64,000 nucleotides of DNA. Source: Pirellulales bacterium. GTDB lineage: Bacteria; Planctomycetota; Planctomycetia; Pirellulales; JAEUIK01. The position numbers and the translations under genes are program-made. How positions within the stretch are numbered: the first letter of the stretch is position 1; every line of letters starts with the position of its first letter. The stretch spans positions 16,501 to 80,500 of the forward strand of contig JAIBBY010000019.1 in NCBI GenBank assembly GCA_019694455.1. Direction: 5' to 3'. Of this stretch, positions 2,376-27,300 are shown piece by piece. Under the pieces are notes generated by a model. The model was not told the origin of the DNA. It did not search any database and was given only the letters and a program-made list of their open reading frames with translations.

Positions 2376-3674
2376 TCAGGCCTTGCCGGCCTGCTGCTTT
2401 CCGCGCTGGATGTTCACCGGAGTGATTAGCGCCCAGCCGACGACAAAGAAAATCAATAGGCTCACAATCGCAATGTGGGCGCTGCCGGTGAAGTAGTTGG
2501 TGATGCCGAAAACCATGGGGCCGAGCATGCTGACCGCGCGGCCAGAGAGATTGAAAAATCCCATGAATTCGCCGGCATGCTTTTCGGGGGTCATGAAGCC
2601 CATAATCGCGCGGCTGACCGACTGCGCGCCCCCCATGACCAGCGCCAAAATGGCGGCCATGATCCAAAACTGCTCGCGTGTATTGACGAAGAACGCCGAG
2701 ATGACCAAGGCCACCCAGATAGCGAGATTGATGTGCAGCGTGGTTTTGGCGCCGATCCAATCGGAGAGTTTGCCGACCAAGAGCGCGCCCGGGAGTGAGA
2801 CAAACTGCACCATCAAGATGACTTTGATGAGCTCGTCAGTTTCCATTTTCAGCACATCTTGGGCGAAGACGGAAGCCTGCGTGATGACCGTCTGCATGCC
2901 ATCGTTGTAAAAGAGAAATCCCAAGAGAAAGAGGGACAGAGTGCCATAGCGCCGCAGGTTGAGGAGAGTCTGCCATACCTTGGCCATGGCGGCCGCGGCT
3001 TCGGCGCGCACCGAGCGGGGCGCCATGGTCGGCGTCAACTTGTCTCGCAAGATCAAGAACGCAGGCAGCGAAAAGACGAACCACCAGACGCCCATCGAGG
3101 CGATCGCCAACCGTGCGGCGTCGGACTTGGAGAGCCCCAGCGCAGCGGGGTTGAGCACGATCACCAGCGCCACGATCAAGGCGAGCGCGCCCCCCACGTA
3201 GCCGAAGGCGAAACCCCAGGCCGAAACGCGATTCATCGATTGGTCGTCGGCGATCTCTGGCAGAAAGCCATTGTAGATGCCCCAGCAAAGCTCGAAACCA
3301 AAATTGGTCAGAAAGAAAAATGCGGCCACCAACCAAGGCCACTCAGTGGGTGTCGCGCCCATCAAGATCGCCGAACCTGCGCCAAGACAGGTCGCGGCGA
3401 TCAGCCACGAGCGTTTGTTCGCCCGCGCGTCGGCCAGGGCGCCGATGATCGGCGACAGTATCGCCGCAAAGAACATGGTGATGCTGATGCCGAGCGAATA
3501 AACCAGCGGACCTTCTCGGCCGGGGATGACGGCGCCCGTCAGGTAACTGACCACCACGGTGATCTGTAGGGTGGACCAGGCACTGCTGGCCCAGTCGTAC
3601 ATGGCCCAGGCAAGCTCCTCGCGACGCGTGCCGCGCTGATTGGTGGGCGAAGGAGCTGATGCGGAGGCGCTCAT
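2376..3674 (-). CDS. MFS transporter (UMF1/Atg22-like)
   Basis: About 12 hydrophobic helices. The N-terminal ELAWAMYDWASSAWST motif is typical of UMF1-type MFS. Start taken at the internal ATG at 3674 (MSASASAP...); the ORF track starts at 3758. Confidence 0.8.
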   Translation of the reverse strand: MSASASAPSPTNQRGTRREELAWAMYDWASSAWSTLQITVVVSYLTGAVIPGREGPLVYSLGISITMFFAAILSPIIGALADARANKRSWLIAATCLGAGSAILMGATPTEWPWLVAAFFFLTNFGFELCWGIYNGFLPEIADDQSMNRVSAWGFAFGYVGGALALIVALVIVLNPAALGLSKSDAARLAIASMGVWWFVFSLPAFLILRDKLTPTMAPRSVRAEAAAAMAKVWQTLLNLRRYGTLSLFLLGFLFYNDGMQTVITQASVFAQDVLKMETDELIKVILMVQFVSLPGALLVGKLSDWIGAKTTLHINLAIWVALVISAFFVNTREQFWIMAAILALVMGGAQSVSRAIMGFMTPEKHAGEFMGFFNLSGRAVSMLGPMVFGITNYFTGSAHIAIVSLLIFFVVGWALITPVNIQRGKQQAGKA

Positions 3675-3859: not shown

Positions 3860-5494
3860 ATGGCCACGGCATCTACCAAGGCGCGCCGCGCCCTGCGACA
3901 AGTGTTGTCTAGCCGGCTCGATTGCGCCTCGGCGCTTTACCAGGCCAATCGGACGCACTCGCTGGCCAAGCTCGAAGAACTAGAAAAGCTGCTCGCGGCG
4001 GGCCGAATGGGCGGGGGCGAAAAATACGTCAAGCGCCATCACGAGCGCGGCAAACTGTTGCCGCGCGAGCGCATTGAACTGCTGCTTGACCCCGATTCTC
4101 CCTTTCTCGAACTGCAAGCCACGGCGGCCGCCGGCACCGAGTATCCCGTGGGAGGCTCGGGCTGCGGCGGCATTGGCGTGGTTAATGGCGTGGAATGTGT
4201 GATCACGGCCAACGATCCGACCGTGCGCGGCGGCTCGGTGAATCCCTTCACGCTCAATAAGACGCTCCGCGCGATGGAGATCGCGCGGATCAATCGGCTG
4301 CCGCTGTTCTTCCTGGTCGAATCGGGGGGCGCCGACCTGCCGAAGCAGGCGGAGATCTTTGTCCCTGGCGGCGGCGTGTTCCGTGCGATGACGCAACTCT
4401 CGGCGCAAGGCGTGCCGACCATTGCGCTGGTGTTTGGCAACTCGACGGCCGGCGGCGCCTATAACCCGGCGATGTGCGATTACTCAGTGTTCGTCAAGGA
4501 TCGCGCCAAGGTTTTTTTGGGGGGTCCGCCGCTGGTGAAGATGGCCACCGGCGAGGAATCGACCGACGAAGAGTTGGGGGGCGCCGAGATGCACGCGCGC
4601 GTCTCCGGCCTGGCCGACTACCTGGCGGTGGACGAACGCGACGCGCTGCGTATTGGCCGCGAGATCGTGGCCAATCTCAATTGGCGCAAGCAGGGACCAG
4701 CGCCAGCGGCCGACTACGCCGAGCCGATCTACGACGCGGAAGAGCTATTGGGATTGGCGCCCGCCGATCTCAAGCAACCGGTCGACATTCGCGAGGTGCT
4801 GGCGCGGATTGTGGATGGCTCGGAGTTCGACGAGTTCAAGCCAAACTACGGCACGAGCCTGGTCACGGGCTGGGCCTCGATTCATGGCTACCCAGTCGGC
4901 GTTTTGGCGAACGCGCAAGGGGTGCTCTTCTCCGACGAGTCGCAGAAGGCGGCGCAGTTCATTCAGCTCGCCAATCGCAACGATGTGCCGTTGATCTTTG
5001 TGCAGAACGTGACCGGCTACATGGTGGGGCGCGAGTACGAACAGCGCGGCATCATCAAGCATGGAGCGATGATGATCAACGCGGTGTCGAACAGCACGGT
5101 GCCGCACATTACGCTGCAAATTGGCGCGTCGTACGGCGCCGGCAACTACGGCATGTGCGGTCGCGCTTACAATCCACGCTTTTTGTTCATCTGGCCCAAC
5201 AGCAAGACCGCCGTGATGGGGCCGCAACAACTGGCGGGAGTGATGTCGCTGGTGATGCGCGCTTCCGCCGAAGCGGCGGGCAAGCCGTTCAACGAGGAAG
5301 AAGACGCCATGCGCCGCGCCTTTGTCGAACATCAGATCGAAAGCGAGTCGCTGGCCACCTACACCAGCGCACGGCTTTACGACGATGGCATCATCGACCC
5401 GCGCGACAGCCGCACCGTGCTGGGCATGGCGCTTTCGGCCTGCTGCTCAGCGCCGGTCGCGGGCACGCGCAATTTCGGCGTCTTCCGCCTGTAA
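3860..5494 (+). CDS. acyl-CoA carboxylase carboxyltransferase (beta) subunit, methylcrotonyl-/geranyl-CoA carboxylase type
   Basis: RHHERGKLLPRERIELLLDPDSPFLEL, GGSVNPFT and GNSTAGGAYNPAM, at 544 aa, are typical of MccB/AtuC/PccB-family carboxyltransferases. Confidence 0.9.
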   Translation: MATASTKARRALRQVLSSRLDCASALYQANRTHSLAKLEELEKLLAAGRMGGGEKYVKRHHERGKLLPRERIELLLDPDSPFLELQATAAAGTEYPVGGSGCGGIGVVNGVECVITANDPTVRGGSVNPFTLNKTLRAMEIARINRLPLFFLVESGGADLPKQAEIFVPGGGVFRAMTQLSAQGVPTIALVFGNSTAGGAYNPAMCDYSVFVKDRAKVFLGGPPLVKMATGEESTDEELGGAEMHARVSGLADYLAVDERDALRIGREIVANLNWRKQGPAPAADYAEPIYDAEELLGLAPADLKQPVDIREVLARIVDGSEFDEFKPNYGTSLVTGWASIHGYPVGVLANAQGVLFSDESQKAAQFIQLANRNDVPLIFVQNVTGYMVGREYEQRGIIKHGAMMINAVSNSTVPHITLQIGASYGAGNYGMCGRAYNPRFLFIWPNSKTAVMGPQQLAGVMSLVMRASAEAAGKPFNEEEDAMRRAFVEHQIESESLATYTSARLYDDGIIDPRDSRTVLGMALSACCSAPVAGTRNFGVFRL

Positions 5495-13155: not shown

Positions 13156-14862
13156 ATGGCCACCAGCATGACGAATTTCACTGACATCCTCATTCGTCAA
13201 AAGGTTATCAGCGCCGACCAACTGGCCGAAGCCGAACAGATGGCGCGCTCGAGCCGTTCCAGCGTCGGCGACGCGCTGGTGCGTCTCGGCTACGCCACCG
13301 GCGACGAAGTGATGCGCGCCATGGCGCGGTCCCACGGTCTCGACTTCGTGAACCTGTCGGAGGTGGTGATCCCCCCATCGGTGGTCGAACTGGTGCCTGA
13401 GTCAATCGCCCGCGAGAACGCGGTGCTGCCGATGGCGGAGGAGGATGGCGCGATCAAGGTGATCGTCAGCGATCCGCTGGATTACGACACCCAAGAGAAG
13501 CTGCGGTTCATACTGAATCGCGAGGTCAAGATCGCGCTCGCCCCGCGCGAGAACATTCTGGAAGCGATCAACCGCTACTACGGGCAGACTGACGGCGAAA
13601 GCGCCGACTCCATGCTGCAGGAGTTCACCGATACGGCGATCGACTTCACCGAGACGGAAACTCAGGCCGCTGGCGACGACGATTCGGACGAGAGCGCCGC
13701 GCCGATCGTGCGGTTGGTGAATTTGATTATCCAAGAGGCGGTGCAACTCCGCGCCTCGGACATTCACATCGAGCCGTTCGAAGACCGGGTGCGGGTGCGG
13801 TACCGCATCGACGGCGTGCTAGTCGAACGCGACAGCCCACCGCGCCGCTTGCTCGCCGCCATGCTGTCGCGCCTCAAAATCATGGCCAAGATGGACATCG
13901 CCGAGCGCCGCCGTCCACAGGACGGTCGCATCAAGGTGAGCACCGCCAACAAAGAACTCGACCTGCGGGTGAGCGTGCTGCCGACCAATCACGGCCAATC
14001 GGTGGTGATGCGGCTATTGGACAAGGACAGCATCAAGGTCAGCCTCAAACAACTCGGCATGGCGGAAGACGTCTTCCGCACCTTCCAGGGACTGATTCGC
14101 CGTCCCAATGGCATCATCTTGGTGACCGGTCCCACCGGTTCGGGCAAGACGACCACGCTGTACGCCGGCCTGAACGACTTGAATCGGCCCGATCGCAAGA
14201 TCATCACCGCCGAAGACCCCGTGGAGTACTACCTGCCGGGCATCAACCAGGTGGAGGTGAAGCACAACATCGGGCTCGACTTTGCCCGCATTATTCGCTC
14301 GATGTTGCGGCAGGCGCCCAATGTGATTCTGGTGGGCGAGATGCGCGATCAAGAAACGGCCGAGATGGGCATTCAGGCCTCGCTCACGGGCCACTTGGTG
14401 TTCAGCACACTGCATACCAACGACGCGCCGGGCGCTGTCACCCGATTGATCGACATGGGCGTGCCTCCGTACCTGGTGGCGTCCAGCGTCATCGCCATCG
14501 TGGCGCAGCGACTGGTGCGCGTGATCTGCACCAAATGCAAACAGCCATTTACTCCCAGCGACGCGCAGCTCGAGGCCGCGGGCATTCCGCCCGAACTGGC
14601 CGCCAAAGGCAACTTCATGCGCGGAAAAGGGTGCGGCAACTGCCAAAAGAGCGGATATCGCGGCCGCATGGGCATCTATGAGTTGATGATGATGAACTCA
14701 AAGGTCCGCGAGCTCTCATTCCAGCGCGCGTCGACACAAGAGATTCGCAAGGCCGCCGTGGCGCAAGGCATGCGGGGGTTGTATCAAGACGGCATCATCA
14801 AGGTCCTCAAGGGGCTGACCACGCTCGACGAGGTCTTCCGGGTCGCCAAGCGGGGCGACTGA
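13156..14862 (+). CDS. GspE/PilB-family type IV filament assembly ATPase (copy 1)
   Basis: T2SSE N-terminal domain, Walker A GPTGSGKTTT, Asp box/Walker B ILVGEMRD, His box FSTLHTNDA, and tetracysteine CTKC...CGNC. Confidence 0.92.
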   Translation: MATSMTNFTDILIRQKVISADQLAEAEQMARSSRSSVGDALVRLGYATGDEVMRAMARSHGLDFVNLSEVVIPPSVVELVPESIARENAVLPMAEEDGAIKVIVSDPLDYDTQEKLRFILNREVKIALAPRENILEAINRYYGQTDGESADSMLQEFTDTAIDFTETETQAAGDDDSDESAAPIVRLVNLIIQEAVQLRASDIHIEPFEDRVRVRYRIDGVLVERDSPPRRLLAAMLSRLKIMAKMDIAERRRPQDGRIKVSTANKELDLRVSVLPTNHGQSVVMRLLDKDSIKVSLKQLGMAEDVFRTFQGLIRRPNGIILVTGPTGSGKTTTLYAGLNDLNRPDRKIITAEDPVEYYLPGINQVEVKHNIGLDFARIIRSMLRQAPNVILVGEMRDQETAEMGIQASLTGHLVFSTLHTNDAPGAVTRLIDMGVPPYLVASSVIAIVAQRLVRVICTKCKQPFTPSDAQLEAAGIPPELAAKGNFMRGKGCGNCQKSGYRGRMGIYELMMMNSKVRELSFQRASTQEIRKAAVAQGMRGLYQDGIIKVLKGLTTLDEVFRVAKRGD

Positions 14863-14912
14863 TCGTGAACTCAATCACCACTTCGCAACGCTACCGTGTA
14901 AGGGACTGACAC

Positions 14913-16052
14913 GTGGGTACGCTGCTCATCGACAAGCTGCTGCAGACCGTCATCAACCAGAAGGCGAGCGATCTGCATATTTCCTGCGGACAACCGCCGT
15001 GTATTCGCCTGGATGGGCGGATGCGGCGTTTGGAAACCAAGACGCTGGAGCCCGACGACACGGTGGCGCTGATGAAGAGCATCACGCCGGAGCGGTGTCA
15101 GCAGGAATTGCAGGAGGTGGGAGGGACCGACTTTGGCTTCGCGTTTGGCGAGCAGGCGCGGTTTCGGGTGGCGGTCTTCAAACAAAAGGGGACCGTCGGC
15201 CTGGTGCTACGGCGGATTCCCAACGAGTTTATGACCTTTGAGCAGCTTGGCCTGCCGAAGGTGTGCGCCGAACTCATCATGCGGCCGCGCGGCTTGTTCC
15301 TGGTGACGGGGCCAACCGGCTCGGGCAAGAGCACCAGCTTGGCCAGCATGATCAATCACATCAATCACAGCGTCGACCATCACATCATCACGATCGAGGA
15401 CCCGATCGAATTCTATCACAAGCACCAGCGTTCCACGGTGAACCAACGCGAGATCGGCGTCGACGTGCCAAGCTTTCCAGAAGCGATACGCCGCGCGCTG
15501 CGTATGGATCCCGATGTGATTCTGGTGGGCGAAATGCGCGATCTGGAAACGATTGAGGCCGCCATCACCGCGGCCGAAACGGGGCACGTGGTCTTTGGCA
15601 CGCTGCACACCACCGGCGCGGAAGGAACGGTGAACCGCATCATCGACGTCTTCCCCACTACGCAGCAAGAACAGATCCGCGTGCAGCTTTCGACTTCGAT
15701 CATTGGCGTGTTGTCGCAGCAATTGCTGCCAAAGATCGGCGGCGGTCGCGTCGCCGCGCACGAGATGCTGGTGGTCACGCCCGGCATCGCCAACCTGATT
15801 CGCGAGAACAAGACGTTTCGCATCACGTCGTCGATTCAAACGGGCGCCAAGTACGGCATGCAGCTCATGGACGACACGCTGTTCAGACTCTGGAAGAACG
15901 GCACCTGCGCCAAGGAAGACGTGATGGTCAAATCGAACAAGCCCGACGAGTTGGCGATGCGGATTGCCAAGGCGGAGGGGGGCATGTTCGACGACGAGCA
16001 GGATTTGCAGGAGAAAAAAGGGGACGGCAAGGCGCCGGCCAAGGGACATTAA
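14913..16052 (+). CDS. pilT: PilT-family retraction ATPase
   Basis: 379 aa with no N-terminal T2SSE_N domain. Walker A GPTGSGKST, ILVGEMRD, FGTLHTT, and the PilT-specific AIxNLIRE-type motif GIANLIRENK. GTG start. Confidence 0.9.
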   Translation: MGTLLIDKLLQTVINQKASDLHISCGQPPCIRLDGRMRRLETKTLEPDDTVALMKSITPERCQQELQEVGGTDFGFAFGEQARFRVAVFKQKGTVGLVLRRIPNEFMTFEQLGLPKVCAELIMRPRGLFLVTGPTGSGKSTSLASMINHINHSVDHHIITIEDPIEFYHKHQRSTVNQREIGVDVPSFPEAIRRALRMDPDVILVGEMRDLETIEAAITAAETGHVVFGTLHTTGAEGTVNRIIDVFPTTQQEQIRVQLSTSIIGVLSQQLLPKIGGGRVAAHEMLVVTPGIANLIRENKTFRITSSIQTGAKYGMQLMDDTLFRLWKNGTCAKEDVMVKSNKPDELAMRIAKAEGGMFDDEQDLQEKKGDGKAPAKGH

Positions 16053-16109
16053 CGGCGGCGTGGTCCGCCAGACTTTTCACGCACAACTTTCGTTACTGAG
16101 ATCACTTCG

Positions 16110-17828
16110 ATGGCGATGCGACGGCTTGGCCAGATTCTCGTCGATCTGGGCTTCATCACCGATGAACAGCTTGAAATGCTGCTGGAGGAGCAGCAAAACC
16201 GCCCCGGCGAACTGATCGGCAAGGTGGCCGAGAGCATGGGGCTGATCAACGACGATCAGTTGGCGCAGGGGCTGGCCGAGCAGATGGGGCTGAAGGTGAT
16301 CAGCCTGGCGGACACGGCCATTCCGCAGGACGTGCTCAACTACGTCACCGAGCCGATGGCGCAGCTTTATCGCATTGTGCCGGTCGCCTTCCGCGACAAC
16401 ACCTTGACGATCGCCATGTGCGATCCGCAAAAGCTGTCGGTCGTCGACGAGCTGCGCAATTTCCTGGGCTACGACATCCGCACCGTGGTCGCCACGGAGA
16501 AGGACGTCAAGGGCGCGCTGGAGCGATACTACGCCGCCGAGGGAGAGAGCGTCGAGAAGATCGTCCACGACATGGAGGAGGACAAAGAGCTCAACGCCGC
16601 CGCCGCCGCGCTCGACAAGGACGGGCCGATCGACCTGACCAGCGTCGAGGCGCTGGCCGACAGCGCACCGGTCCGCAAGCTGCTCAACATGGTGCTCTTG
16701 ATGGCCATCAAGGACCATGCCAGCGACTTGCACTTTGAGCCATTCGAAGACGAATTCAAGATTCGCATCAAGGCCGACGGCGTGCTCTTTGAGATGGTGC
16801 CGCCGCCGCGCCACCTGGCCTTCGCCATCACCACGCGCATCAAGGTGATGGCCAACCTCGACATCGCCGAACGCCGGTTGCCGCAAGACGGCCGCATTGA
16901 GCTGAACGTGGGCGGCCACCCGGTCGATCTGCGGGTGAGCGTGCTGCCGACCATGTTCGGCGAGAGCGTGGTCATGCGGGTGCTCGACCGCTCGGTGGTC
17001 AACCTCGATCTGGCTGCGGTCGGCATGAACGCCAGCACGCTACAAGCGTTTCGCGAGGTGATCGAACACCCCAACGGCATCGTGCTGGTGACCGGCCCCA
17101 CTGGGTCGGGCAAGACCACCACCCTGTATTCGGCCCTGTCCGAGCTGAACTCGGTGGACGACAAGATCATCACCACCGAGGATCCCATCGAGTACGACAT
17201 CGACGGCATCGTGCAGTGCCCCATCGACCACTCGATCGGCAACACTTTCGCGGCTTGTTTGCGGGCCATTTTGCGGCAAGATCCAGATATTATTCTGGTG
17301 GGGGAGATTCGCGACCTGGAGACGGCCGAGATCGCCGTCCAAGCCTCGCTGACGGGTCACATGGTCTTTAGCACGCTGCACACCAACGACGCCCCCAGCA
17401 CGATCACGCGCTTGCGCGACATGGGGGTGGAACCGTTTATGATCACCGCCACCGTGGAGGCGATACTTGCCCAGCGGCTGGTGCGCAAGATCTGCTCCGG
17501 CTGCCGAGAGGAGATCAAGCCCACCCAAGACATGCTGGCCGAACTGCAATTGGCCGCCGGCGATGTGGCAGGGAGGCAATTCTTTCGCGGCAAAGGTTGC
17601 GACGTTTGCAACAACACGGGTTATAAAGGACGCATCGGCCTGTTCGAGTTGATGGTGATGAACAACGACCTGCGCGAGATGATCGTACGCAATTGCACCA
17701 GCGACGAGTTGCGCGTGGCCGCGCGGCGCTACGGCATGGTGACCTTGCGCGACGCCGGCATGGATTACGTGTATCAAGGCAAAACGACGCTGGAAGAAGT
17801 CGTCCGCGAAACGATTGTAGACGGGTAA
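16110..17828 (+). CDS. GspE/PilB-family assembly ATPase (copy 2) with MshEN-type N-terminus
   Basis: Walker A GPTGSGKTTT, ILVGEIRD, FSTLHTNDA and CSGC...CDVC. The N-terminus RLGQILVDLGFITDEQLEMLLEEQ matches the 24-residue MshEN c-di-GMP-binding motif. Confidence 0.92.
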   Translation: MAMRRLGQILVDLGFITDEQLEMLLEEQQNRPGELIGKVAESMGLINDDQLAQGLAEQMGLKVISLADTAIPQDVLNYVTEPMAQLYRIVPVAFRDNTLTIAMCDPQKLSVVDELRNFLGYDIRTVVATEKDVKGALERYYAAEGESVEKIVHDMEEDKELNAAAAALDKDGPIDLTSVEALADSAPVRKLLNMVLLMAIKDHASDLHFEPFEDEFKIRIKADGVLFEMVPPPRHLAFAITTRIKVMANLDIAERRLPQDGRIELNVGGHPVDLRVSVLPTMFGESVVMRVLDRSVVNLDLAAVGMNASTLQAFREVIEHPNGIVLVTGPTGSGKTTTLYSALSELNSVDDKIITTEDPIEYDIDGIVQCPIDHSIGNTFAACLRAILRQDPDIILVGEIRDLETAEIAVQASLTGHMVFSTLHTNDAPSTITRLRDMGVEPFMITATVEAILAQRLVRKICSGCREEIKPTQDMLAELQLAAGDVAGRQFFRGKGCDVCNNTGYKGRIGLFELMVMNNDLREMIVRNCTSDELRVAARRYGMVTLRDAGMDYVYQGKTTLEEVVRETIVDG

Positions 17829-17923
17829 CCACGGCCGCGACGGCGGCCCCAACCACAGAGCAGCGCAGCACAGGGCGAAGGGAAACCGGCCGCGAGCCGT
17901 GAGGATCGCGGAGGAGAGCACGT

Positions 17924-19255
17924 ATGCCGACGTACCAATTCGAAGCGATGGACGCCACCGGCGCCGAGATCAAGGACGAGATCGACGCCGTCAGCGAGGA
18001 AGAAGCGCAGGCGACAATTCGCCAGATGGGCTACTTCGTCACGAAGCTGTCCGTCAAGAAAGCGCGCAAGTCGGCCGCCGAAAAGAAAAAGAAAGGTAAA
18101 GGGGGCAAGACCTTCGCCATTGGCGGCGTGAGCACCAAGCTGCTCACCACGTTCACGCGCCAACTCTCCATTTTGCAGGACGCCGGTCTGCCGATCTTGC
18201 GCAGCCTGAGAATCCTGGAAGGACAATCGAAGCCGGGCCGGCTGAAAAACTCGCTGATCGACGTCTGCGACGAGATCGAGGCGGGCGCCACGCTCTCGGA
18301 GGCGATGTCCAAGAGCCCCAAATGCTTCGACCGCCTGTACGTGAACATGATCAAAGCGGGCGAGGCGGGCGGCGCCTTGGAAGTCATCTTGCGCCGCCTG
18401 GCCGAGTTCCAAGAAAAAGCCCAGGCCCTCAAGCGCAAAGTCAAGGGGGCGATGGTCTACCCGGTTGTCGTCGTCATGATCGCCACCGTTATTCTGGTGG
18501 CGATCATGAAGTTCATTGTGCCGAAGTTCAAACAGATCTTCGACGACTTCGACAGCGAGCTGCCCGCGATGACCGAGTGGCTCATCTGGGTGTCCGACAT
18601 CGTCATCAATTACTTCTTCCTGCTGCCCTTGATTCCCGTGGGCATCTGGTTGTTCGTCAAGCTCGTGCGCAAGTTCGAGTATGGCCGCTACGGCTGGGAC
18701 TTGTTCACGCTCAAGGTGCCGGTGTTCGGCCAATTGATCGAAAAGAACATCATGGCTCGCACCAGCCGCACACTCGGCACGCTGGTGGCGTCGGGCGTGC
18801 CGATCTTGGAGGCCTTGTTCATCGCCAAGGAGACCAGCGGCAACGCCGTGTTCGAAAACCTATACGGCAAGATTTACGACGCGATTCGCGAGGGAGAATC
18901 GATTGCCCGGCCGATGAAGGAAAACTCCAAGCCCGGCTTCCATCCGGTGTCGGCCTTCTTCTGGTTCGCCTTTGTGGGGGGGCCGATTGGGCTATTGATG
19001 TACATGCTGCGGCTCAACGACCGCATCGTCGACGATCTGGTGATCAACATGATCGACGTGGGGGAAGAGACGGGCGAGCTCGACACCATGCTCTATAAAG
19101 TGGCCGATACCTACGACGAAGAGGTGGCGGTGCTCACCGAAAGCCTCGTGAGCCTGCTGGAACCGCTGTTGATCGTGGTGCTCGGCGGCATGGTCGGCTT
19201 CATCGTGATCGCCCTGTTCTTGCCGCTCATCAAGCTGATCGGCGACCTGAGCTAA
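17924..19255 (+). CDS. GspF/PilC-family inner-membrane platform protein
   Basis: MPTYQFEAMDATGAEIKDEIDA N-terminus, a duplicated T2SSF-type domain, three TM segments, and a GGAGGAG RBS upstream. Confidence 0.92.
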   Translation: MPTYQFEAMDATGAEIKDEIDAVSEEEAQATIRQMGYFVTKLSVKKARKSAAEKKKKGKGGKTFAIGGVSTKLLTTFTRQLSILQDAGLPILRSLRILEGQSKPGRLKNSLIDVCDEIEAGATLSEAMSKSPKCFDRLYVNMIKAGEAGGALEVILRRLAEFQEKAQALKRKVKGAMVYPVVVVMIATVILVAIMKFIVPKFKQIFDDFDSELPAMTEWLIWVSDIVINYFFLLPLIPVGIWLFVKLVRKFEYGRYGWDLFTLKVPVFGQLIEKNIMARTSRTLGTLVASGVPILEALFIAKETSGNAVFENLYGKIYDAIREGESIARPMKENSKPGFHPVSAFFWFAFVGGPIGLLMYMLRLNDRIVDDLVINMIDVGEETGELDTMLYKVADTYDEEVAVLTESLVSLLEPLLIVVLGGMVGFIVIALFLPLIKLIGDLS

Positions 19256-19545: not shown

Positions 19546-20718
19546 ATGACACGAAGTCGAGAAAACTACCGTTCTCCGCTGTATGCCGCTGGCTCCGATG
19601 CAGGGGCCGCTGGCCTTGCTTCTTCACCTCGTGCCCGCTGCCGCCGGCCCCTACATGGTTTCACGCTCGTCGAACTGCTGATGGTGATCGTCATCATCGG
19701 CGTCTTGGCCGGGCTGCTTTTGTTCGCCGTGGGCGGCGGCACGAAGAAGGCTAAGAACGCGGCGGTGCTCAGCGAGATCGAGCAGATTCAATCCGCGATC
19801 GAGTCCTACCGCACCGAACGGGGCAGCTACCCGCCCACCCTCGGCATTTTCGTCGGCGACCAAAAGCTCTCGCCGGCGCCGATGGGGAGCATGGTCCCGC
19901 AGGTGCAGCAGCAGCGCATTACGCGGCACATCGCCAAGGCGTTTCCACGTTACATCGCCAACTACAACGACATGCGACTGCACATCTCCGACGCCACGAA
20001 GTTCGTCTCCGTGTCGAACAACGCGGCCAAGTACATGGGTAATGCCGGAAACGGGCTTGATCTCGAGAATCTCGATCCGGCGGAGGCGCTCGTGTTTTTC
20101 CTTGGGGGGCTGCCGAACTCCAACGCCGAGACCAAACTGGCGCCGTTTCGCTTGGACCCGGCCAATCCTTTTTTTGGCACGGGCGCTTCGGCCGCCGATC
20201 CGTATCCGGGTCAGCGCGGCAAGGTGTTCTTTCCGTTCGATGCGCGGCGACTGGTCGATTATGACGGCGATGGCTGGTGGGAGTACTTGCCGCCGGGTGG
20301 AACGCAGGAAGGCAACACGCCGCCGTATGTCTACTTCGACAGCAACATCTATAAATCGGGCCCGGCCTATCCGTATCCGTCGCAGGCGGCCGGTGTGTTA
20401 AGCGTCAGCGCGCCGGGCTTTCAAGGCCCCAACAATGAGTCACTGTGGGGCAACAGCATCCCGTACGCGGCCGATCCGGCGCCGACCGGTACGCAGCCGC
20501 TGAAGTTCATGAACTCGCAAAAATTCCAGATCATCGCCCCTGGCATCGACACCAAATACCACAAGCAATTGTTGGCCAGCGACGTTTTGTCTGGTGGCAC
20601 GCCGTGGTGGTTCGCTGCGGATTTCTTCCCATCGACCGCATCGGCACAGGTCGATGACCAGGACAACCTGACCAATTTCGCCGGGGGCACGTTGGCCGAT
20701 TCGGCGCCCACTCCATGA
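19546..20718 (+). CDS. GspG-like major pseudopilin/pilin with large C-terminal extension (390 aa)
   Basis: Prepilin site HG|[20 protein letters not shown] with Glu+5. GspG-like helix [30 protein letters not shown], a DYDGDG loop, and C-terminal IIAPGID...DDQDNLTNF resembling the GspG SxGxDG...DDITNW end. The nearest in-frame start upstream of the site is the ATG at 19546, giving a 38-aa leader. The track ORF start at 19273 is rejected. Confidence 0.8.
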
Positions 20719-21845
20719 CACATCGCACGCTCGCACAACACGGACGCCGCACGATGCAGCAGGAGGGCCGATTCGCTCTCCTGTTTGCGTCTGGCGGCTA
20801 CGCGCGGCGAGATGGTCGGCGTGGCTTCACGCTGATCGAGCTTTTGGTCGTGATCACGATCATCGCCATTCTGGCGGGCATGGCGCTGGGCGCGTTGTAC
20901 CAGGCGCAAGAGGCCGCTCGGCTGTCGCGCACGCGTTCGCTGATCACCAAGTTGAACGCCGCCATGCAAGAACGCTGGGAGAGCTATCGCACCCGGCGCT
21001 TGCCGGTCGACCTGAACCAGACCAGCGGCGACGGACGCCAGTTCGCGCTGTGCCAACTGTTGGCGCGGCGGCAACTGATGCGGATGGAACTGCCCGACCG
21101 CTGGAGCGACATCAATATCACGGCGCTTTCTCCCACGCAAGACAAGGCGTTCGGCACCGACACGTCGACTGGGCGCACGGAGCGCAGTGATTGGGCAACC
21201 GCGCTGGGCTTGCCGAAGACCGAGTTTCAAACAATCGGCATACCGCTCGCCACGCCGATCAACGTGCCCTACTCGGCGCTCTTTTACGCCTACCAGCGAC
21301 GGCTAGCGCAGATCGGCAGTCCCACGCCCGCGTATCAAGGCGCCGAGTGCTTGTACCTGATCCTGACCACGGGCATGGGGGACGAGTCGGCCACCGACAT
21401 GGCGATATCGCCGCGCGACGTGGGAGACTTTGACAACGACGGCGCCAAGGAATTCATCGACGGCTGGGGGCGCCCCATCTCGTTTCTGCGCTGGGCGCCT
21501 GGCTTCCTCTCCGACTTGCAGCCCGGCAATCCCACCGCCACCAATCCGTTCGACGCGCGCGACTTGCGGGCAAATCACGATCCATTCGATCCGGCGGGCA
21601 TCGACCCGCTGGCGTTTGAAATGCATCCGCTGATTTTCTCGGCCGGTTCGGACGGCGTATACCGCATCGCCACGGTCGAGAACTCGCCGAACAAGACGCC
21701 GGATCAAAACGATCCATACGCTCCCACCGATCCCGGCGCCAGTCAGTTGAGTTGGCGCGGCCAGGTGACGGCCCTCCAGCCCGAGGATGGCGACGGCGGA
21801 CCAGAGGACAACATCCACAACCACTTGCTCGACATCAGGCGTTAA
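20715..21845 (+). CDS. prepilin-type pseudopilin, GspG-fold-like (376 aa)
   Basis: RRG|[41 protein letters not shown] (compare the GspG DxDxDG / DPWGxPY region), and IFSAGSDG...DNIHNH. Its ATGA overlaps the stop of the upstream gene. Confidence 0.8.
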
Positions 21846-21846
21846 C

Positions 21847-22968
21847 GTGCGGAAGTTGTTTCCACATTTCGAGATCACCGGCGCTTTGTGCAGCAACCGC
21901 GGCGCCGGTCGGCGCGGCGGCTTCACGCTGGTCGAGCTATTGGTGGTGATACTGATCGTCGGCATCCTGGCGGGCATCGCGCTGCCAGTGATCTTGCCGA
22001 CGCTCGACACGCGACGGCTGCGCGAGGCGTCGCGCACGGTGACCAGTTATCTGAACGGGGCCCGCGACACGGCAATGCGCAACGGCCGTCCGGTGGGGGT
22101 GATGTTCGAGCGGTTCAGCGTGACCGACGACGGCGGCACGACGCGGCAGCAGCCGAAGATGTCGATCGTGCTGCGGCAGGTGGAAGTGCCGCCCCCCTAC
22201 GCGGGAGACACGATTGCGTCGCGGGCGTTGATCGGCGGCGGTCAAATAGTTGGGCTCGGCGGCGTGACTCTGAATATGGGCGTGCTGACTGTGACCGGCC
22301 CAGACTACGGGGTGACGCGGCTGGTCAAGCCCGGCGATCTGATACGGTTCAATTATCAGGGGGCCTATTTTCAGATCGCCAGCGGCACGGCGGACACCAT
22401 CGACAATCGTTACCTCAAACCGCCGACGCCAACAGAACCTTGGACGATTTCGTCGCTCGGCGTGATCCCCGTGCATATCCAGGCGGCGACGGTGGCCGCT
22501 CCGATTGCCCTGCCGTATCAGATCATCCGCCAGCCGGTGAAGTCGGCCAACCCCGCGATGCAACTGCCGGAGTCGCTGGTGATCGACATGGAGTATTCGG
22601 GCGTGGGCGGAACTGGCTCTGAGTTTTCCAGTCTCAATGGCAATGCGCCGGTGGTGGTGATGTTCGCGCCGGACGGCACGGCATCGCACATTTACTACAA
22701 CTACATGCGAGCCTCGGTCGGCAGCGCGATTCACCTGTTGCTCGGCAAGCGCGAGCGGTTGGACAACACCTGGGCCGCGAGTCAGACAGGCGACGATATG
22801 TCGAACCTGCAAGACCTGGAGAATTTTTGGATCTCGATCCAACCGCAGAGTGGGCTGATCACGTCGAGCAATGTGGGCGCGATCAACGCCGCGACGACTC
22901 AGCCGGCCGACGCGCTCAAGCAGTCGCGAGTGTTCGCCGAATCGGCCCAAGCATTGGGAGGCAGGTGA
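21847..22968 (+). CDS. GspH/FimT-like minor pseudopilin (about 373 aa)
   Basis: GG|FTLVELLVVILIVGILAGIALP, followed by RRLREASRTVTSYLNGARDTAMRNGRPVGV, which is the GspH/FimT-type helix pattern. Start assigned to the GTG at 21847, 1 nt after the upstream stop. In-frame TTG alternatives lie downstream, and the ORF track starts at 21787, overlapping the previous gene. Confidence 0.7.
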   Translation: MRKLFPHFEITGALCSNRGAGRRGGFTLVELLVVILIVGILAGIALPVILPTLDTRRLREASRTVTSYLNGARDTAMRNGRPVGVMFERFSVTDDGGTTRQQPKMSIVLRQVEVPPPYAGDTIASRALIGGGQIVGLGGVTLNMGVLTVTGPDYGVTRLVKPGDLIRFNYQGAYFQIASGTADTIDNRYLKPPTPTEPWTISSLGVIPVHIQAATVAAPIALPYQIIRQPVKSANPAMQLPESLVIDMEYSGVGGTGSEFSSLNGNAPVVVMFAPDGTASHIYYNYMRASVGSAIHLLLGKRERLDNTWAASQTGDDMSNLQDLENFWISIQPQSGLITSSNVGAINAATTQPADALKQSRVFAESAQALGGR

Positions 22969-24335
22969 TGCGCGGTATTCTTCCCCTCATCCGGCCTGCG
23001 GCCCGCACTGGCAAAGCCGGTGGCACACGGGAAAATACGCCCCCTCACCCGGCCTGCGGCCGGTCTCTCCCCCTGCTGCGCGGGGGCGAGGCGAAAAAAC
23101 ACACTGGCCCGGCCACTGGCCTGCAAAGGCGCACGCCGCGCGGCATCACGCTGATGGAGGTGCTGATCTCGATCTTCGTCGCTTCGGTCGGGCTGATGGG
23201 ACTGGCAGCGCTGATCCCCGTCGGGCGGCATTATGTGGTCGAGGCGAGCAAGCAGGAACGCGGCAACGCGGTGGGCCGGGCGGCGTTTCGCGAGATCAAA
23301 GTCCGTGGCTGGCTCAAGCCTGAGAATCTTTGGGGCTCGGGAGGAGCGGTGACAGGCGCCGACCTGACCAAGCCATTTTGCATCGACCCCTTGTTCGTCG
23401 CGTACCCGGCCAATAGCGCGGCGGGCGGCGCGATGACGATCATGCCAGGTACGCTGCCTTGGAACGATGGCACTGGCTGGTTGTTCCCGACCAAACTAAC
23501 CAACGAGTTGGGCGCGGGCGTGACCGCCACGGCGCGCATGCCACGCGCGACTTTGAAGGGTTGGAGCGGCGCCACCATTCCCATGACCAATCCATCGGTG
23601 GAGCGGATGTTCCGCTCGGAAGATGATCTGGTGTTTGAGCAACCCAGCGACGAGACGAAGCGGCCCAACGTGGTGTGGGGTTCGGACGACCGGATCCAGT
23701 CGGCCGGCGACTACACCTGGCTGGCGACGGTGGTCCCGTCGCCGTGGCCCTACCCGGTCACGCCCGCGCCGATCGCGGCGCCCAAGGCGTTCAGCGTGTC
23801 GGTGGCGGTGTGCTACAAGCGCTCGCCGTTGGCGCCGCTGCCGGCAATCGCCAATCGGGGAGACGGCCCGCCGAGCGAACGCGTGCTGTATGCCGACTTC
23901 ATCTCGGGGGGCGTCGGCTATGGCGGCGGCGACGTGCTGTTGCGACTGCCGATCAAATCGGGCGATCCGAACAGCGACCCGGCCAACGTGGAGAAGAGCG
24001 ATTTTCCCAAGGTGCGGCCAGGACAATGGATCATGCTGGGCGGCTGGACGCAGCCGGCGGCGCCGATTCAGCCGCACGAGGTCTATCATTGGTATCGCGT
24101 GGTGGCGACGGGGGGCGACCCCAGCTATGCCGATAGCGGCACGAACCCGGCCAGCGCCTCGGGCAACCCGGAGTGGTACCTCGAAGCGACGCTCGCCGGC
24201 CCCGACTGGGCGGCCGACTCGACGATGTATCAAGACGCCGACGGGGCAGGCGGCTTGACGCTCTATGCCACGGTGATCGATGGCGTGGTGGGGGTTTACA
24301 CCAAGACGATCGAGGTCGATAGCTGGGCTCAGTGA
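22968..24335 (+). CDS. PilV/GspI-like minor pseudopilin (455 aa)
   Basis: RG|ITLMEVLISIFVASVGLMGLAALIP is the PilV/GspI-type N-terminus. Its ATG overlaps the upstream TGA (gTGATG). The apparent 59-aa leader contains the GC-rich repeats. A CTG at 23121 would give an 8-aa leader, (M)QRRTPRG. Confidence 0.7.
   Translation: MRGILPLIRPAARTGKAGGTRENTPPHPACGRSLPLLRGGEAKKHTGPATGLQRRTPRGITLMEVLISIFVASVGLMGLAALIPVGRHYVVEASKQERGNAVGRAAFREIKVRGWLKPENLWGSGGAVTGADLTKPFCIDPLFVAYPANSAAGGAMTIMPGTLPWNDGTGWLFPTKLTNELGAGVTATARMPRATLKGWSGATIPMTNPSVERMFRSEDDLVFEQPSDETKRPNVVWGSDDRIQSAGDYTWLATVVPSPWPYPVTPAPIAAPKAFSVSVAVCYKRSPLAPLPAIANRGDGPPSERVLYADFISGGVGYGGGDVLLRLPIKSGDPNSDPANVEKSDFPKVRPGQWIMLGGWTQPAAPIQPHEVYHWYRVVATGGDPSYADSGTNPASASGNPEWYLEATLAGPDWAADSTMYQDADGAGGLTLYATVIDGVVGVYTKTIEVDSWAQ
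22983..23090. repeat. GC-rich palindromic repeat element (family 1) inside the 5' end of the PilV-like gene
   Basis: 21-mer CCCCTCATCCGGCCTGCGGCC at 22983-23003. A one-mismatch copy at 23041-23061 is followed by an imperfect hairpin ctctccccc-N8-gggggcgag. Confidence 0.8.
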
Positions 24336-27300
24336 TGGGTCCGGCCAAGTTCACAATACAGGAAACGGGGCAACCGCAGGGGCTCTGCGGCGGAGTGAGT
24401 GAGATGGCGGCGAACGAATTGAATCGACAACTCGAGAATAACGGCTCCAAGCCGGGCTACCCCCTCATCCGGCCTGCGGCCCGCGCTACCGGGGCCAGCA
24501 GCACACGGTTCGAAGCTGGCGAGCAGTGGATCAGTGGAGCAGCTGAGCAAGTCCCCCTCATCCGGCCTGCGGCCACCTTCTCCCCGCAAGCGGGGCGAAG
24601 GCCGAAATACACCAGTCTCGCCGCGGCCACTGCTACGATCCGCAATGGTGCACGGGGGACTAAGCGGCGGGGCATCATACTGCTGTTTATCCTGGGGCTT
24701 TTGGCGCTTTTTTCGCTGGTCACGGTCACGTTTGTGGTCGTCGCACGTACGCACAAGCGGGGCGCGGCGATTCACGCGCAGATCGAACGCACCGGGGACT
24801 CGCCCGAGCAGCTTACCAAGACCGCTTTGTTGCAGGTGCTGCGCGGCACGAACAACGCCGCCTCCACCTTGCGCGCGCACAGCCTGCTGGAAGACATGTA
24901 CGGCAGCGACGGACTGGTGGGCAAGATGGTCGATCCGTCCACGCTGCCAGCGGATCAGTTCAATAAGCAATTCATTCCTTTGGGGACGCTGGCCAGCGAT
25001 GTGACGTTTCCAACGCTGCAATGGGCCCCCGCGCCCCTGCTGAGTCAGGTGGCCAGTTACTACACCGGGCGCGTGCTGACGATGATCGAGGGGCCGTGCG
25101 CCGGCGAGAGCGTGCGGATCGTGGATTACACCTATGCGAGCGGGACCGGCGTGTTTTGGGTGATGCCGTTCAAGCAGGGGCGCCCGCTCCAAGGCAACCG
25201 CTTCGTCGTCAACGGGGCGCCGTTCAACGGGACGGGCTTTGGCTTCAACCTGCAAACGTATCAGAACAACCCCGCGCTGCCGCTGTTGAATTTTCCGAAC
25301 GCGGTGACTGGCGTGCAGGCCTTCGCGCCCAATCATCAGACGTTTATTCCCTCCATGCCGGGCTATCCCGATCCGGCTGGCCTGGGCGGAGCCGATGAAG
25401 ATTATGACGCGGCCGACTATCAAAACCTGCTCTTGGCGCTGCGGGCCATCACCAGCAACACCAGCAGCCCTTACTATCCCAGCCAGGTGGTATTGCCGTC
25501 GCTGCACCGGCCCGACCTGGTGAGCTTTGTGCTGGCCAATCAGAACACACCGATTCCCTGGACCAATTGGAACACGGCCGCGGCGACGATTCCGCTGCGC
25601 AGCGTCATGCTGCGGCCCGTGGGCGGATTCGTTGGCGCCGATCATCCGAACTTCAGTGGCAGCAATCCCAGCTTCCATCCCGTGACGGGGCCGTGGGACA
25701 TCGACAACGACAACGACGGCAAGCCCGACAGCGTCTGGGTCGATCTGGGCCTGCCGGTGCAGACCACACCCGATGGCCGCACCTACAAGCCGCTGTTCGC
25801 CATCTTGTGCGAAGACCTGGATGGCCGCCTGAACCTCAACGCGCACGGCAACGCCAACCAATTGGTGATGCCAACCAGCGTGGAAGCGGGGGCCGGCGTC
25901 GCCGCCACCGGCACGACCAAGGCGCAAGCCCCGACCGCCGGCAGCGACTCGGCGGGGGGGACTGTCGCCAAGTTGCCGGTCGGCCAGGGGTATGGTCCCG
26001 CCGAGGTCAACCTGGGCATCTTCTTCAACCAAACGACTAACAACACGGTTTCATTTGACGAGTTCGACAACCTGCTGTTCGGCGTCAAGACGGGGGGCGT
26101 GTTCACCGACTCGGTGATTAGCGTGACCTTTGGCCTGCCAACGGCTCTCCCATCGCTGACCAACGAACTGCTACTGGGGCGCTACGGCGAACTTGACGTG
26201 CCGCTGAGCGAGGCGCCGGCGGCGGGGCGCACCGACGAGGGCGCCAACGGCATCGATCCGACCATGGATATGTCTGCGTGGTGGAAGATGTCCGACTTTG
26301 CCGCGTACAACTCCAAGATCGGCACGCCATCGAACTACGGCACACGGTCTGACCTGGACGGCGACGGCGTGCTGGCGGTCGATCCGTCGGGCAATCTGGT
26401 GTTCCCGAATTTCGCGCAGAACGAATCGACCGGCATGCACGGCATGGGCGAGCGCTGGGAGACGCGCAATAGCGCTTACGACCTGGACCTGTCGCGAAAC
26501 GCCCCACGCACCGGCCTGCCGAACAGCAAGATTCCGTACACCATCGACGCGCCGTTTCAGCCGACCGAGCTGGAGCGGATTTTGCGCTACAACGATCTCG
26601 ACGCGCCGAGCCTGCCCGACCGATTGCTGCGCCTGGCGCCATTCATGTTCACGGGCCGATCGTCGATGGGGAGCGACCTGCCGGGCAACGCCGAGTATCG
26701 CCGCCGATTGGTGACAACCGAAAGCTGGGACTTGCCGATTCCGTCGCTCGGCCCTTCGGCCGATGTGCTGGCCCCAGGGGCGTATTTGAATCAAACCTTG
26801 TACGCCAGCGCCGCGCCGGCGAGCGCCACCCTGCTCGACCGGATCGCGACGATCACGCCGACGAGCGTGAACCGCGCGATCGTGTTGAACCATCTGGGGG
26901 GCGAGTTGTCGCGGGGGCTCCAGTTCGACATTAACCGCCCGTTTGGCGACGGCATCGACAACGACGGCGATTGGCTGGTGGACGAGCCCGACGAAGCCAC
27001 TGAGTACGCCTGGCCGCAGTACTACGGAAGCACAGTGCAATTCAAACACAACACTTCCCTGGGCGGCACGACCCTCGACCGGGAGCAATACGCCCGCAGC
27101 CTGTACATGTTGGTGATGATGCTGATGGACCAGCAGTTTGTCGATCGGGAGTATCCGGCGAGCAACCCCGCCAAGCGGATGCGACTGGCGACGCAGGTGG
27201 CGCAGTGGGCGGTGAACGTGACCGACTTCCGCGACAGCGATTCGATCATGACCGGCTTCGAGTTCGACGCGGCGCCGTTCACGGATGAGAACAGCGACGG

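Follow-up and report, generated by a model that had tools for sequence, protein, structure and literature searches.

Triplex-Type Hairpin Repeats at the Leader-Coding Ends of Prepilin-Type Genes in a Pirellulales Pilus-Like Operon

This report concerns a gene cluster in a 64-kb stretch of DNA (termed the window) from a Pirellulales metagenome-assembled genome (MAG; locus tags K1X71_), and the G/C-rich repeats found at the 5′ ends of its last two genes. The cluster is a tightly packed type IV pilus/type II secretion-like pseudopilin operon. Two PilB-like ATPases and one PilT-like ATPase come first (window positions 13156–19255; two of the three have an MshEN domain, and the PilT-like one is short), followed by a PilC/GspF platform protein. 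Downstream of the platform gene are four prepilin-type genes, i.e. one GspG-like, two GspH-like/Verru_Chthon-D-like and one PilV-like. The final gene encodes a giant protein of ~1,800 residues. Neighbouring genes overlap or abut (ATGA, TAAcGTG, TGATG), and there is almost zero intergenic DNA. The repeat units sit in the leader-coding stretch of consecutive genes, i.e. between the start codon at the gene junction and a Gly/[FI]TLxE cleavage site (the slash marks the predicted cut).

The PilV-like protein matches the N_methyl and TIGR02523 (PilV) models at residues 56–103. N_methyl gives 20.5 bits, just below its cut-off of 21.2, and TIGR02523 an E-value of 2.3e-6. The cleavage region reads ...RTPRG/ITLMEVLISIFVASVGLMGLAAL and displays the class III prepilin pattern of a Gly, a hydrophobic helix and a Glu at +5. 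The Gly(−1) codon is at positions 23142–23144, and the segment 23142–24335 (+ strand) encodes this residue and the mature minor pilin (G/ITLMEVLISIFVASVGLMGL...), ending with the TGA at 24333–24335. In the last gene the Gly(−1) codon is at 24671–24673, and the segment 24671–29842 (+ strand) encodes it with the giant protein (G/IILLFILGLLALFSLVTVTF...). The giant protein gives zero matches to Pfam or NCBIfam; a Gly and a hydrophobic helix are present and Glu5 is absent. Its orthologues read RRG/VLLLVVL at the cleavage site. The initial annotation of this DNA had called the gene pilin-type, which stands for the N-terminal helix but not for Glu5 or a pilin family model.

A 21-mer, CCCCTCATCCGGCCTGCGGCC, is present exactly at positions 22983–23003, 24461–24481 and 24554–24574, and with one mismatch (T>C) at 23041–23061, always on the + strand. 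These are the positions first reported. No further match with three or fewer mismatches is found in the 64 kb, and the count expected by chance is 0.00 (100 dinucleotide shuffles).

At junction 1, in the PilV-like gene, the first unit is module A (22983–23029, + strand). It consists of 21-mer copy 1, a CACTGGC-AAA-GCCGGTG hairpin and the sequence GCACACG (hairpin and GCACACG at 23006–23029), and is read as PLIRPAARTGKAGGTR. Module A is kept at junction 1 of a sister strain (contig L001, described below), where the stem is a perfect GCCAGTG. The second unit, module C (23040–23094, + strand), consists of 21-mer copy 2, with a GGCC-TGC-GGCC mini-hairpin, and the hairpin CTCTCCCCC / GGGGGCGAG. It is read as PPHPACGRSLPLLRGGEA, and is also present at junction 2 of the sister strain. 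The minus-strand layout of module C is that of a BoxC/TM-like triplex motif.

Junction 2, in the giant gene, begins with 21-mer copy 3 and a degenerate module A-like tail, CGCGCTACCGGGGCCAGCAGCACACGG (24461–24508, + strand; 81% identical to 22983–23030), together read as PLIRPAARATGASSTR. There follows a spacer, GGCGAGCAGTGGATCAGTGGA (24518–24538, + strand), read GEQWISG, which in the sister strain is found at junction 1 instead (L001 9917–9937). Module B (24553–24634, + strand) comprises 21-mer copy 4, the hairpin CCTTCTCCCC-GCAAGC-GGGGCGAAGG (24576–24601) and a tail, GAAATACACCAG...GGCCACTGCT. It is read as PLIRPAATFSPQAGRRPKYTSLAAATA and is 94% identical to L001 11438–11519. No module copy is found elsewhere in the window. 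Near 61.4 and 61.9 kb there are two 10-mer matches, which were rejected as copies because they are chance words of coding sequence.

Folding confirms the two hairpins that had been noted earlier, whose coordinates were right within 1–4 nt. The segment 23041–23095 forms a mini-hairpin (23049–23063) and a main hairpin (23064–23094), with −29.2 kcal/mol. The segment 24554–24606 likewise forms a mini-hairpin (24564–24574) and a main hairpin (24576–24601), with −23.7 kcal/mol; the mini-hairpin is made by GGCC-TGC-GGCC within the 21-mer itself. Given the GC-rich DNA, these local hairpins stand out from shuffled sequence only modestly (z = −1.3 and −1.8). A fold of both junctions had been proposed as a check. 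Shuffled sequence folds as well as the longer stretches 22950–23160 and 24320–24690 do (z = +0.83 and +0.39), and the idea of a large conserved leader RNA was rejected on this basis. An Rfam scan of 21000–26000 with E-values up to 5 gives two chance matches well under threshold, and in 18 loci from other phyla no Rfam match overlaps the element; it is therefore no curated RNA family.

One genome per species was scanned for the 21-mer, with T or C allowed at position 8, and the counts that follow apply to the matches listed. The exact 21-mer is present in more than 120 genome stretches of about ten phyla, where a rough chance expectation over the whole collection is about ten or fewer. The taxa include Planctomycetota, Verrucomicrobiota, Acidobacteriota, Myxococcota, Alpha- and Gammaproteobacteria and Desulfuromonadales/Geobacteraceae, as well as Firmicutes (Gemmiger isolates), Elusimicrobia, Chloroflexi (Anaerolineales) and Sericytochromatia. 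A near-identical unit is also found in isolates of Devosia, Arenimonas and Gemmiger. The initial annotation had suggested that relatives be compared for a lineage-specific insertion; the repeat itself, 21-mer with hairpin, is not lineage-specific. A plasmid collection searched with two 32-nt queries gave no match.

In nearly all cross-phylum copies, what comes directly after the 21-mer is either ACCTTCTCCCC-loop-GGGGAGAAGG or (G)ACC(C)TCTCCCC-loop-GGGAGAGG(G/T), and GGGGTGAGGGG is often nearby. Every variant of the 5′ arm is paired with its own reverse complement downstream. Read on the minus strand, the full unit is a C-rich arm, a loop, a G-rich arm, a GGCC-NNN-GGCC mini-hairpin and a second G-rich block. 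In this reading the 21-mer corresponds, as a reverse complement, to the mini-hairpin together with the second G-rich block, i.e. the potential third strand. A minus-strand oligonucleotide version of the element is CCTTCGCCCCGCTTGCGGGGAGAAGGTGGCCGCAGGCCGGATGAGGGG. Examples of matches on the minus strand (in the numbering L002–L121 of the cross-phylum loci) are L012 1749–1769, L023 1711–1731 and L034 886–906. A neighbouring copy in L023 has the mini-hairpin GCCC-TTC-GGGC, which is a compensatory change.

On the minus strand, module B has a 6-nt loop and 9/10 Watson-Crick pairs, and reads CCTTCGCCCC-GCTTGC-GGGGAGAAGG-T-GGCCGCAGGCC-GGATGAGGGG. Module C reads CCTCGCCCCC-GCGCAGCA-GGGGGAGAG, with an 8-nt loop and 8/10 Watson-Crick pairs. 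The second G-rich block (GGATGAGGG in module B, GGGTGAGGG in module C) comes after a GGCC-GCA-GGCC mini-hairpin of 12–14 nt. Canonical purine-motif triads (G.G-C, A.A-T, T.A-T) are formed at 10/10 positions in module B and at 8/10 in module C of the window. In 100 cross-phylum copies aligned in a fixed register, 93.2% of third-strand/duplex triads are canonical, vs 47%–57% when the register is shifted. The variable triple column changes in all three strands together: 55 copies have (T,T,A) there and 43 have (C,C,G), the other 2 being exceptions. The Fisher probability for this covariation (p = 9e-28) is overstated because the copies are not phylogenetically independent, but the pattern is still clear.

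A literature search by sequence string led to a known repeat with such symmetry. TM_ECO, earlier termed BoxC or PIT, is defined as CCCTCNCCC N3-6 GGGNGAGGG N3 GGGNGAGGG (Holder et al. 2015, PMC4666352; Hoyne et al. 2000, cited there). Across 262 proteobacterial genomes, 3,610 copies were counted. The E. coli K-12 copies all lie between genes, no transposase is associated with them, and rearrangement between strains is far greater at TM_ECO loci than at control loci. Triplex formation has been demonstrated for the E. coli motif only (PMC4666352). The element described here shares with it a G/C-rich hairpin of C-arm, loop and G-arm with a second G-rich block that mirrors the first, and the words CCCTCNCCC, GGGNGAGGG and GGGTGAGGGG. 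Both are multi-copy in both orientations, no transposase is seen nearby, and loci are rearranged between close strains. The strict TM_ECO pattern, however, has no match in the window. Its 3-nt second loop is here one of 12–14 nt with a GGCC-NNN-GGCC mini-hairpin, the first loop is up to 8 nt, and the arms are CCTTCTCCCC or CTCTCCCCC and not strictly CCCTCNCCC. Furthermore, the present element is found far outside Proteobacteria, and inside reading frames where the E. coli K-12 copies are intergenic. The repeats are thus a dispersed, cross-phylum G/C-rich hairpin/mirror-repeat family related, by sequence and layout, to the BoxC/PIT/TM_ECO intrastrand triplex motif. They are filed as a variant of BoxC/TM_ECO and not as a member, on account of the strict loop definition and the location. 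A second loop of 12–14 nt is outside the search range (1–6 nt) of Holder et al. (2015), and the unit may represent an undescribed subclass.

Other families of small repeats are also comparable. Repetitive extragenic palindromes (REPs) and their mosaics (BIMEs), of the type served by RAYT transposases, are short GC-rich hairpins in mosaics or pairs between operon genes, with some copies within open reading frames (ORFs), especially at N-termini (Di Nocera et al. 2013, PMC3733652). Unlike these, the present element has mirror-repeat (triplex) symmetry besides the palindrome, and it is near-identical across phyla where REPs are usually species- or genus-specific. No GTAG/CGTC tag is beside any hairpin in the window or in L001, and because this tag is absent the element is not a RAYT-type REP. 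Among the genes around the operon, to which the scan was confined, there is no RAYT gene and no transposase. Bacterial MITEs (miniature transposable elements with inverted repeats), e.g. Correia/NEMIS, ERIC and Nezha (PMC10969869), resemble the present element as small non-autonomous repeats with the capacity to lengthen or join reading frames and to fold into RNA hairpins. In contrast to MITEs, the units are ~50–60 nt. Comparison of filled and empty sites (leaders of ORF2 and ORF3) displays ragged boundaries, with no target-site duplication and no terminal inverted repeats, and the element is not a MITE for this reason. Of the earlier proposal of a mobile REP/MITE-like element tolerated in a cleaved leader, comparison with relatives supports the tolerance of a dispersed element; the strict REP/MITE identity gives way to that of a BoxC/triplex-motif relative.

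Across phyla the element avoids the interiors of long ORFs: 15/87 copies are deeply embedded, vs 236/435 random positions. Depth of embedding was used here in place of stop-to-stop ORF length as the genic/intergenic test, the latter being confounded since the element is nearly stop-free. A general link of the element to pilin genes was rejected, as prepilin motifs are nearby in 1/120 loci. Tandem arrays of composite units are found in some Planctomycetales MAGs (L021 6048–6804, L045 3927–4193, L083 405–819). The L021 array has six copies with a period of ~147 nt, and its units combine several hairpin modules in a BIME-like mosaic.

The position of the repeats relative to the start codons is as follows. 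The PilV-like gene has a GGGAGG ribosome-binding site at 22956–22961, followed by the proposed start, ATG 22968 (22956–22970, + strand). The TGA of the upstream pilin gene (22966–22968) overlaps this ATG. The sister strain L001 and a 43%-identical gene cluster, L129, share this GGGAGG-N6-ATG overlap. Between ATG 22968 and Gly(−1) at 23142 there is no in-frame ATG, GTG or TTG, and only ATT/ATC and the CTG codons 23073, 23076 and 23121 are available. The initial annotation had listed CTG 23121 as the only such codon between the repeats and the hydrophobic segment. From ATG 22968 the leader is 59 aa.

In the giant gene, ATG 24335 overlaps the PilV-like TGA (24333–24335). Both TGATG overlaps exist as first described, and had been taken as translational coupling. 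ATG 24335 is in the same frame as the giant gene but is not conserved: L001 has TGACG. By contrast, ATG 24404 with the codons MAANELNRQLE (24404–24460, + strand) lies in a block of ~75 nt which is kept in L001 with 2 mismatches and has non-homologous DNA on both flanks. GGAG is 8 nt before this ATG, also kept in L001. The segment between the PilV-like stop and ATG 24404 (24336–24403, + strand) has a hairpin, CCGCAG-GGGCT-CTGCGG (24374–24390), and the GGAG (24392–24395). It differs from L001 by +6 and −1 nt, net 5 nt, which is no multiple of three; this indicates a non-coding spacer and hence a start at ATG 24404 and not at the TGATG overlap. Thus on sequence grounds the giant gene most likely starts at ATG 24404 with its own ribosome-binding site and without strict stop/start coupling. 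Between TTG 24419 and TTG 24701 there is no canonical start in the giant gene, only ATC, ATA and CTG.

Counted from ATG 24335 the leader of the giant gene would have 113 aa, and from ATG 24404 it would have 90. From the nearest canonical starts the two leaders are 59 aa and 85–113 aa, which is beyond the known prepilin range. The exact 21-mer copies translate as PLIRPAA, and the one-mismatch copy, in another frame, as PPHPACG. Host-frame translation bears out the earlier observations that the exact copies read PLIRPAA, that the leaders are stop-free, and that both genes are without an in-frame ATG, GTG or TTG between the repeats and the pilin helix.

Annotation pipelines treat these genes differently. 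The National Center for Biotechnology Information (NCBI) annotation gives the PilV-like protein its long leader (455 aa), but its giant protein, of 1,713 aa, begins within the transmembrane helix at TTG 24701. The Joint Genome Institute (JGI) annotation starts the giant protein at ATG 24335 (1,835 aa), which is 122 residues more. A start at ATG 24404 gives 1,812 aa and was chosen by no pipeline.

A relative of the PilV-like protein with 97% identity is 405 aa long and starts MKYPRRG/ITLMEV. It is encoded on contig L001, which is syntenic with the window at ~96% DNA identity. Repeats are present at both L001 junctions in other combinations. Junction 1 there resembles window junction 2, and L001 junction 2 is module B followed by the module C of window junction 1. 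Two further leaders of L001, those of the second and third pilin genes, contain copies in minus orientation that are missing from the window. Units have therefore been inserted, inverted, deleted and swapped between junctions among ~96%-identical strains. The shuffled modules and additional inverted copies point to elements that are recent and polymorphic and have been swapped between adjacent leaders, in keeping with the instability reported for the E. coli motif.

All six repeat-bearing leader states (four L001 genes and two window genes) are in frame and stop-free from conserved starts, and in five of the six the other two frames carry 1–5 stops. The conserved starts are, in gene order, an ATGA overlap (MTHRTLAQ), a GTG separated by one base from the upstream stop ((M)R(K/Q)L(F/Y)PHFEIT), a TGATG overlap (MRGILPLIRPAAR) and GGAG-N8-ATG (MAANELNRQLE). 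In a whole-operon alignment the net differences in leader length are +195, +108, 0 (+35−4−31) and +138 nt, all multiples of three. A rough estimate of our own for the chance of six independent in-register states, if the sequence were untranslated, is (1/3)^6, ~0.001, or ~1e-5 when stop-freeness is included.

Relatives outside this pair of strains display further leader states. In the syntenic operon of L129 (43% identical), the 63–72 codons that precede the cleavage Gly are without a canonical start in three pilin genes, which explains why the gene caller placed their starts after or inside the pilin motif. The stretches concerned are L129 3263–3452, 4448–4715 and 5773–5989, and two of the leaders carry inverted copies of a different 35-nt repeat (3346–3380, 4566–4600). 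In a compact relative, L130, the ATG is directly after the upstream stop and the leader is 9 codons. This fits an insertion between the start codon and the cleavage site, and is the expected pre-insertion state. Orthologues of other lineages have leaders of 9–40 residues. A pattern search of metagenome contigs gave 146 matches and zero true relatives; this collection evidently does not include the sister contig.

Frame conservation, purifying selection (below) and the start signals of L129 support translation of the repeats within the leaders. The long translated leaders proposed earlier are thereby favoured at 59 aa for the PilV-like gene and, for the giant gene, at ~90 aa rather than 110. 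An alternative is that the repeats are untranslated intercistronic elements and that the upstream in-frame ATGs are incidental, with initiation at a non-canonical codon downstream: CTG 23121 in the PilV-like gene, and ATC 24638 or the ATC/ATA/CTG cluster at 24674–24692 in the giant gene. CTG 23121 (23121–23123, + strand) is the only near-cognate in-frame codon that gives a classical short leader, a textbook 8 residues (LQRRTPRG/ITLMEV). The sister strain has canonical starts at the positions equivalent to the non-canonical candidates, and the 9–40-residue leaders of the other lineages would also agree with this alternative. REPs at ORF N-termini are often actually extragenic (PMC3733652). A non-canonical start leaves unexplained, however, why every leader state, counted from a conserved start with a ribosome-binding site, has a length in multiples of three and no stop, when the only clear spacer departs from that length rule. 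In addition, CTG 23121 has no purine-rich ribosome-binding site upstream, and three genes of L129 are likewise without a proximal canonical start. CTG, ATC and ATA starts are very rare in bacteria, which counts against initiation downstream. Such initiation is regarded as unlikely.

The host genes are under purifying selection, also in the lineage without a proximal start. Relative to L001, the PilV-like gene has a dN/dS of 0.115, the giant gene one of 0.071, and the two upstream pilin genes have 0.116 and 0.027. A third sequence, L123 (SRR27901409, another sample), is 98.2% identical to the window and has the same junction 1. In the mature PilV-like part it differs from the window by 7 synonymous changes and 1 non-synonymous change.

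These values bear on the possibility that the two genes of the window strain have been silenced by a repeat-driven loss of proximal starts, and are young pseudogenes or phase-off variants. A canonical proximal start is absent from both, and the giant gene has an ATGGTG (24646–24651, + strand) one base out of frame; a count by hand gave this offset, in agreement with the ORF list. The ATGGTG is probably the relic of a proximal start, because it matches an in-frame ATGGTG start called in the sister strain. An assembly error at the adjacent G5 run (24655–24659) is unlikely as its origin, since three assemblies agree. L123 has lost one C at the equivalent of window position 23363, which gives a premature stop after residue 132 of the PilV-like protein, though the deletion is ~40 nt from the end of a 949-nt contig and is either an assembly error or a real pseudogene. 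Against silencing, both ORFs run uninterrupted for 397 and 1,723 codons and have dN/dS values of 0.07–0.12, the 7:1 excess of synonymous changes is found in a lineage with this very junction, and the conserved upstream starts with their ribosome-binding sites are still in frame. Silencing is therefore judged very improbable.

The source is a MAG, and repeats are classic sites of misassembly, so that repeat-induced misjoins could in principle have produced these junctions. The NCBI MAG, JGI 3300006092 (L124) and Logan SRR1027651 (L125) nevertheless agree base for base, the window being matched at 100% identity by L124 for 9.1 kb and by L125 for 6.2 kb across the junctions, although these assemblies possibly share reads. 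Junction 1 is present in the SRR27901409 sequence, and the sister haplotype is found in three JGI samples. It would be most surprising if the arrangement were an artefact.

The explanation preferred here, and considered probable from the sequence comparisons, is that unstable triplex/hairpin repeats are tolerated inside prepilin leaders that are translated and later cleaved. Hairpin or triplex formation would destabilise the leader stretches during replication or recombination, and only variants whose reading frame is open from the junction start codon would survive. Ribosomes would initiate at ATG 22968 and ATG 24404 and translate through the repeats, giving basic, hydrophilic, cytoplasmic leaders of 59 and ~90 residues. 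Prepilin peptidase would remove these after the conserved Gly, and the mature proteins would be unaffected. Because adjacent genes of the operon overlap or abut, the leader may be the only dispensable sequence, i.e. a safe harbour for the repeats.

The predicted leaders can be compared with class III signal peptides, in which a hydrophilic basic leader ending in Gly is followed by a hydrophobic helix of ~21 residues, and the leader stays cytoplasmic and is removed (Berry and Pelicic 2015, PMC4471445). The same arrangement is predicted here, with Glu5 in the PilV-like protein. All leaders are basic (net charge +7 to +15) and have no membrane-grade hydrophobic stretch; this fits a cytoplasmic leader that is cut after Gly (PMC4471445). 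Repeat-bearing leaders would contain such peptides as GILPLIRPAAR, SLPLLR, HTGPATGLQR and FEAGEQWISGAAEQVPLIRPAATFSPQAGR. Documented class III prepilin leaders, including those of the type IVb/Tad systems, are 6–26 aa and up to ~30 (PMC4471445). Those proposed here, in contrast, are 59 and ~90 aa, with up to 136 aa in the longest repeat-bearing leader of the sister strain, and are largely repeat DNA.

Several observations weigh against translation through the repeats. It is deduced from frame conservation alone, over a handful of events, and leaders of 59–136 aa are far beyond the documented lengths. At window junction 1 all three forward frames are stop-free, so that there the open frame is uninformative and the register alone is informative. 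In L001 each of the four genes has a canonical start 5–17 codons before Gly(−1), namely GTG 7577, GTG 8748, ATG 10001 and ATG 11646; gene-caller starts are at or just past these (TTG 7601, GTG 8748, ATG 10001, ATG 11646). ATG 10001 was created by a CC>AT change in the tail of a repeat. The L001 proximal starts, this origin of ATG 10001 and the ATGGTG relic of the window together suggest a possible preference for short leaders and their loss from the window haplotype. The NCBI pipeline bypassed the long giant leader. As to the insertions, the absence of a target duplication and of a transposase near the operon also counts on this side, as does the confinement of all copies within the 64 kb to one operon. 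Finally, no prepilin peptidase (peptidase A24) gene was found in the scanned part of the window.

The same confinement could be taken as a sign that the elements are kept for a function, which is compatible with translation: RNA hairpins, or DNA triplexes and hairpins, would set minor pilin expression or form a contingency locus. All copies in the window, and all 21-mer copies in 21 kb of the sister strain, are in the leaders of this operon. The hairpins are stable (−24 to −29 kcal/mol), intercistronic REPs of E. coli are generally known to alter mRNA stability (PMC3733652), and triplex-motif loci are hypervariable (PMC4666352). On the other hand, presence, orientation and number vary between near-identical strains, and the window lacks copies in two genes. 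The longer junction regions fold no better than shuffled sequence, pilin genes are near the element in a single locus of the 120, and studies of BoxC/PIT saw no promoter, terminator or expression effect (PMC4666352). Maintenance for such a role is held to be quite improbable.

A more specific proposal, which appears doubtful, is that the leader segments are a maintained hypervariable cassette in which the repeats are actively kept, and, linked to this, that the unit is an undescribed cross-phylum subclass of triplex motifs. Recombination may then give strain-specific leaders (9 to >130 residues) that set the amounts of each minor pilin and of the giant tip-like protein. The repeats may be a contingency mechanism built into a cleavable signal peptide, and not merely tolerated junk. 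In the linked proposal, near-identity in about ten phyla may come from a three-strand structural constraint rather than from transfer.

The preferred explanation, of tolerated repeats in cleaved leaders, has a precedent in the Rickettsia palindromic elements (RPEs; PMC3733652). These are also in-frame palindromic repeats that add a peptide segment to a gene that is still functional. As with RPEs, the repeats here are in frame, the frame is kept and the host gene is under selection. RPEs differ in being 100–150 bp, AT-rich, Rickettsia-specific and kept at surface-exposed sites of the mature protein, whereas the inserts of the window are in a segment expected to be cleaved off. The present case joins two known kinds, i.e. 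a triplex-type repeat and an in-frame repeat insertion, in a variant form.

If the leaders are translated, prepilin leaders may reach two to five times any documented length and be built from repeat DNA, which would inform how much is tolerated by signal recognition particle (SRP)/Sec targeting and by prepilin peptidase. Such leaders would also illustrate neatly how unstable repeats inside genes can find a safe harbour in a cleavable signal peptide, and would complement the Rickettsia case, where the insert remains in the mature protein. For annotation, the three pipelines gave three different starts (the full long leader, internal starts and a start inside the membrane helix), and repeat-bearing leaders are easily mistaken for intergenic DNA. 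The three-way covariation and near-identity over about ten phyla extend a puzzle described mainly in Proteobacteria and Cyanobacteria. The many natural variants of the BoxC-like motif are suited to testing whether triplex formation is the constraint.

Two further observations concern other parts of the operon and its relatives. In the GspG-like major pilin gene, window positions 19869–19902 display indels of −5 and +8 nt, 33 nt apart, relative to the sister strain, and identity around this segment is only ~86% vs ~96% elsewhere. The pair of indels is either a compensated local frameshift or a replaced segment. In orthologues of the giant protein from other Planctomycetota (P0052, P0053, P0054, P0058, P0063 and P0066), the predicted N-termini include repeat-derived peptides, e.g. 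HPSSFIPHPSSFILHP, PYPLSPIPYPLSP, KGTVPFCSEDCAKSGQSP and SPHPLPRGRGRR, before an RRG/VLLLV helix. Repeats upstream of or inside the leaders may thus be common across the giant-gene family.

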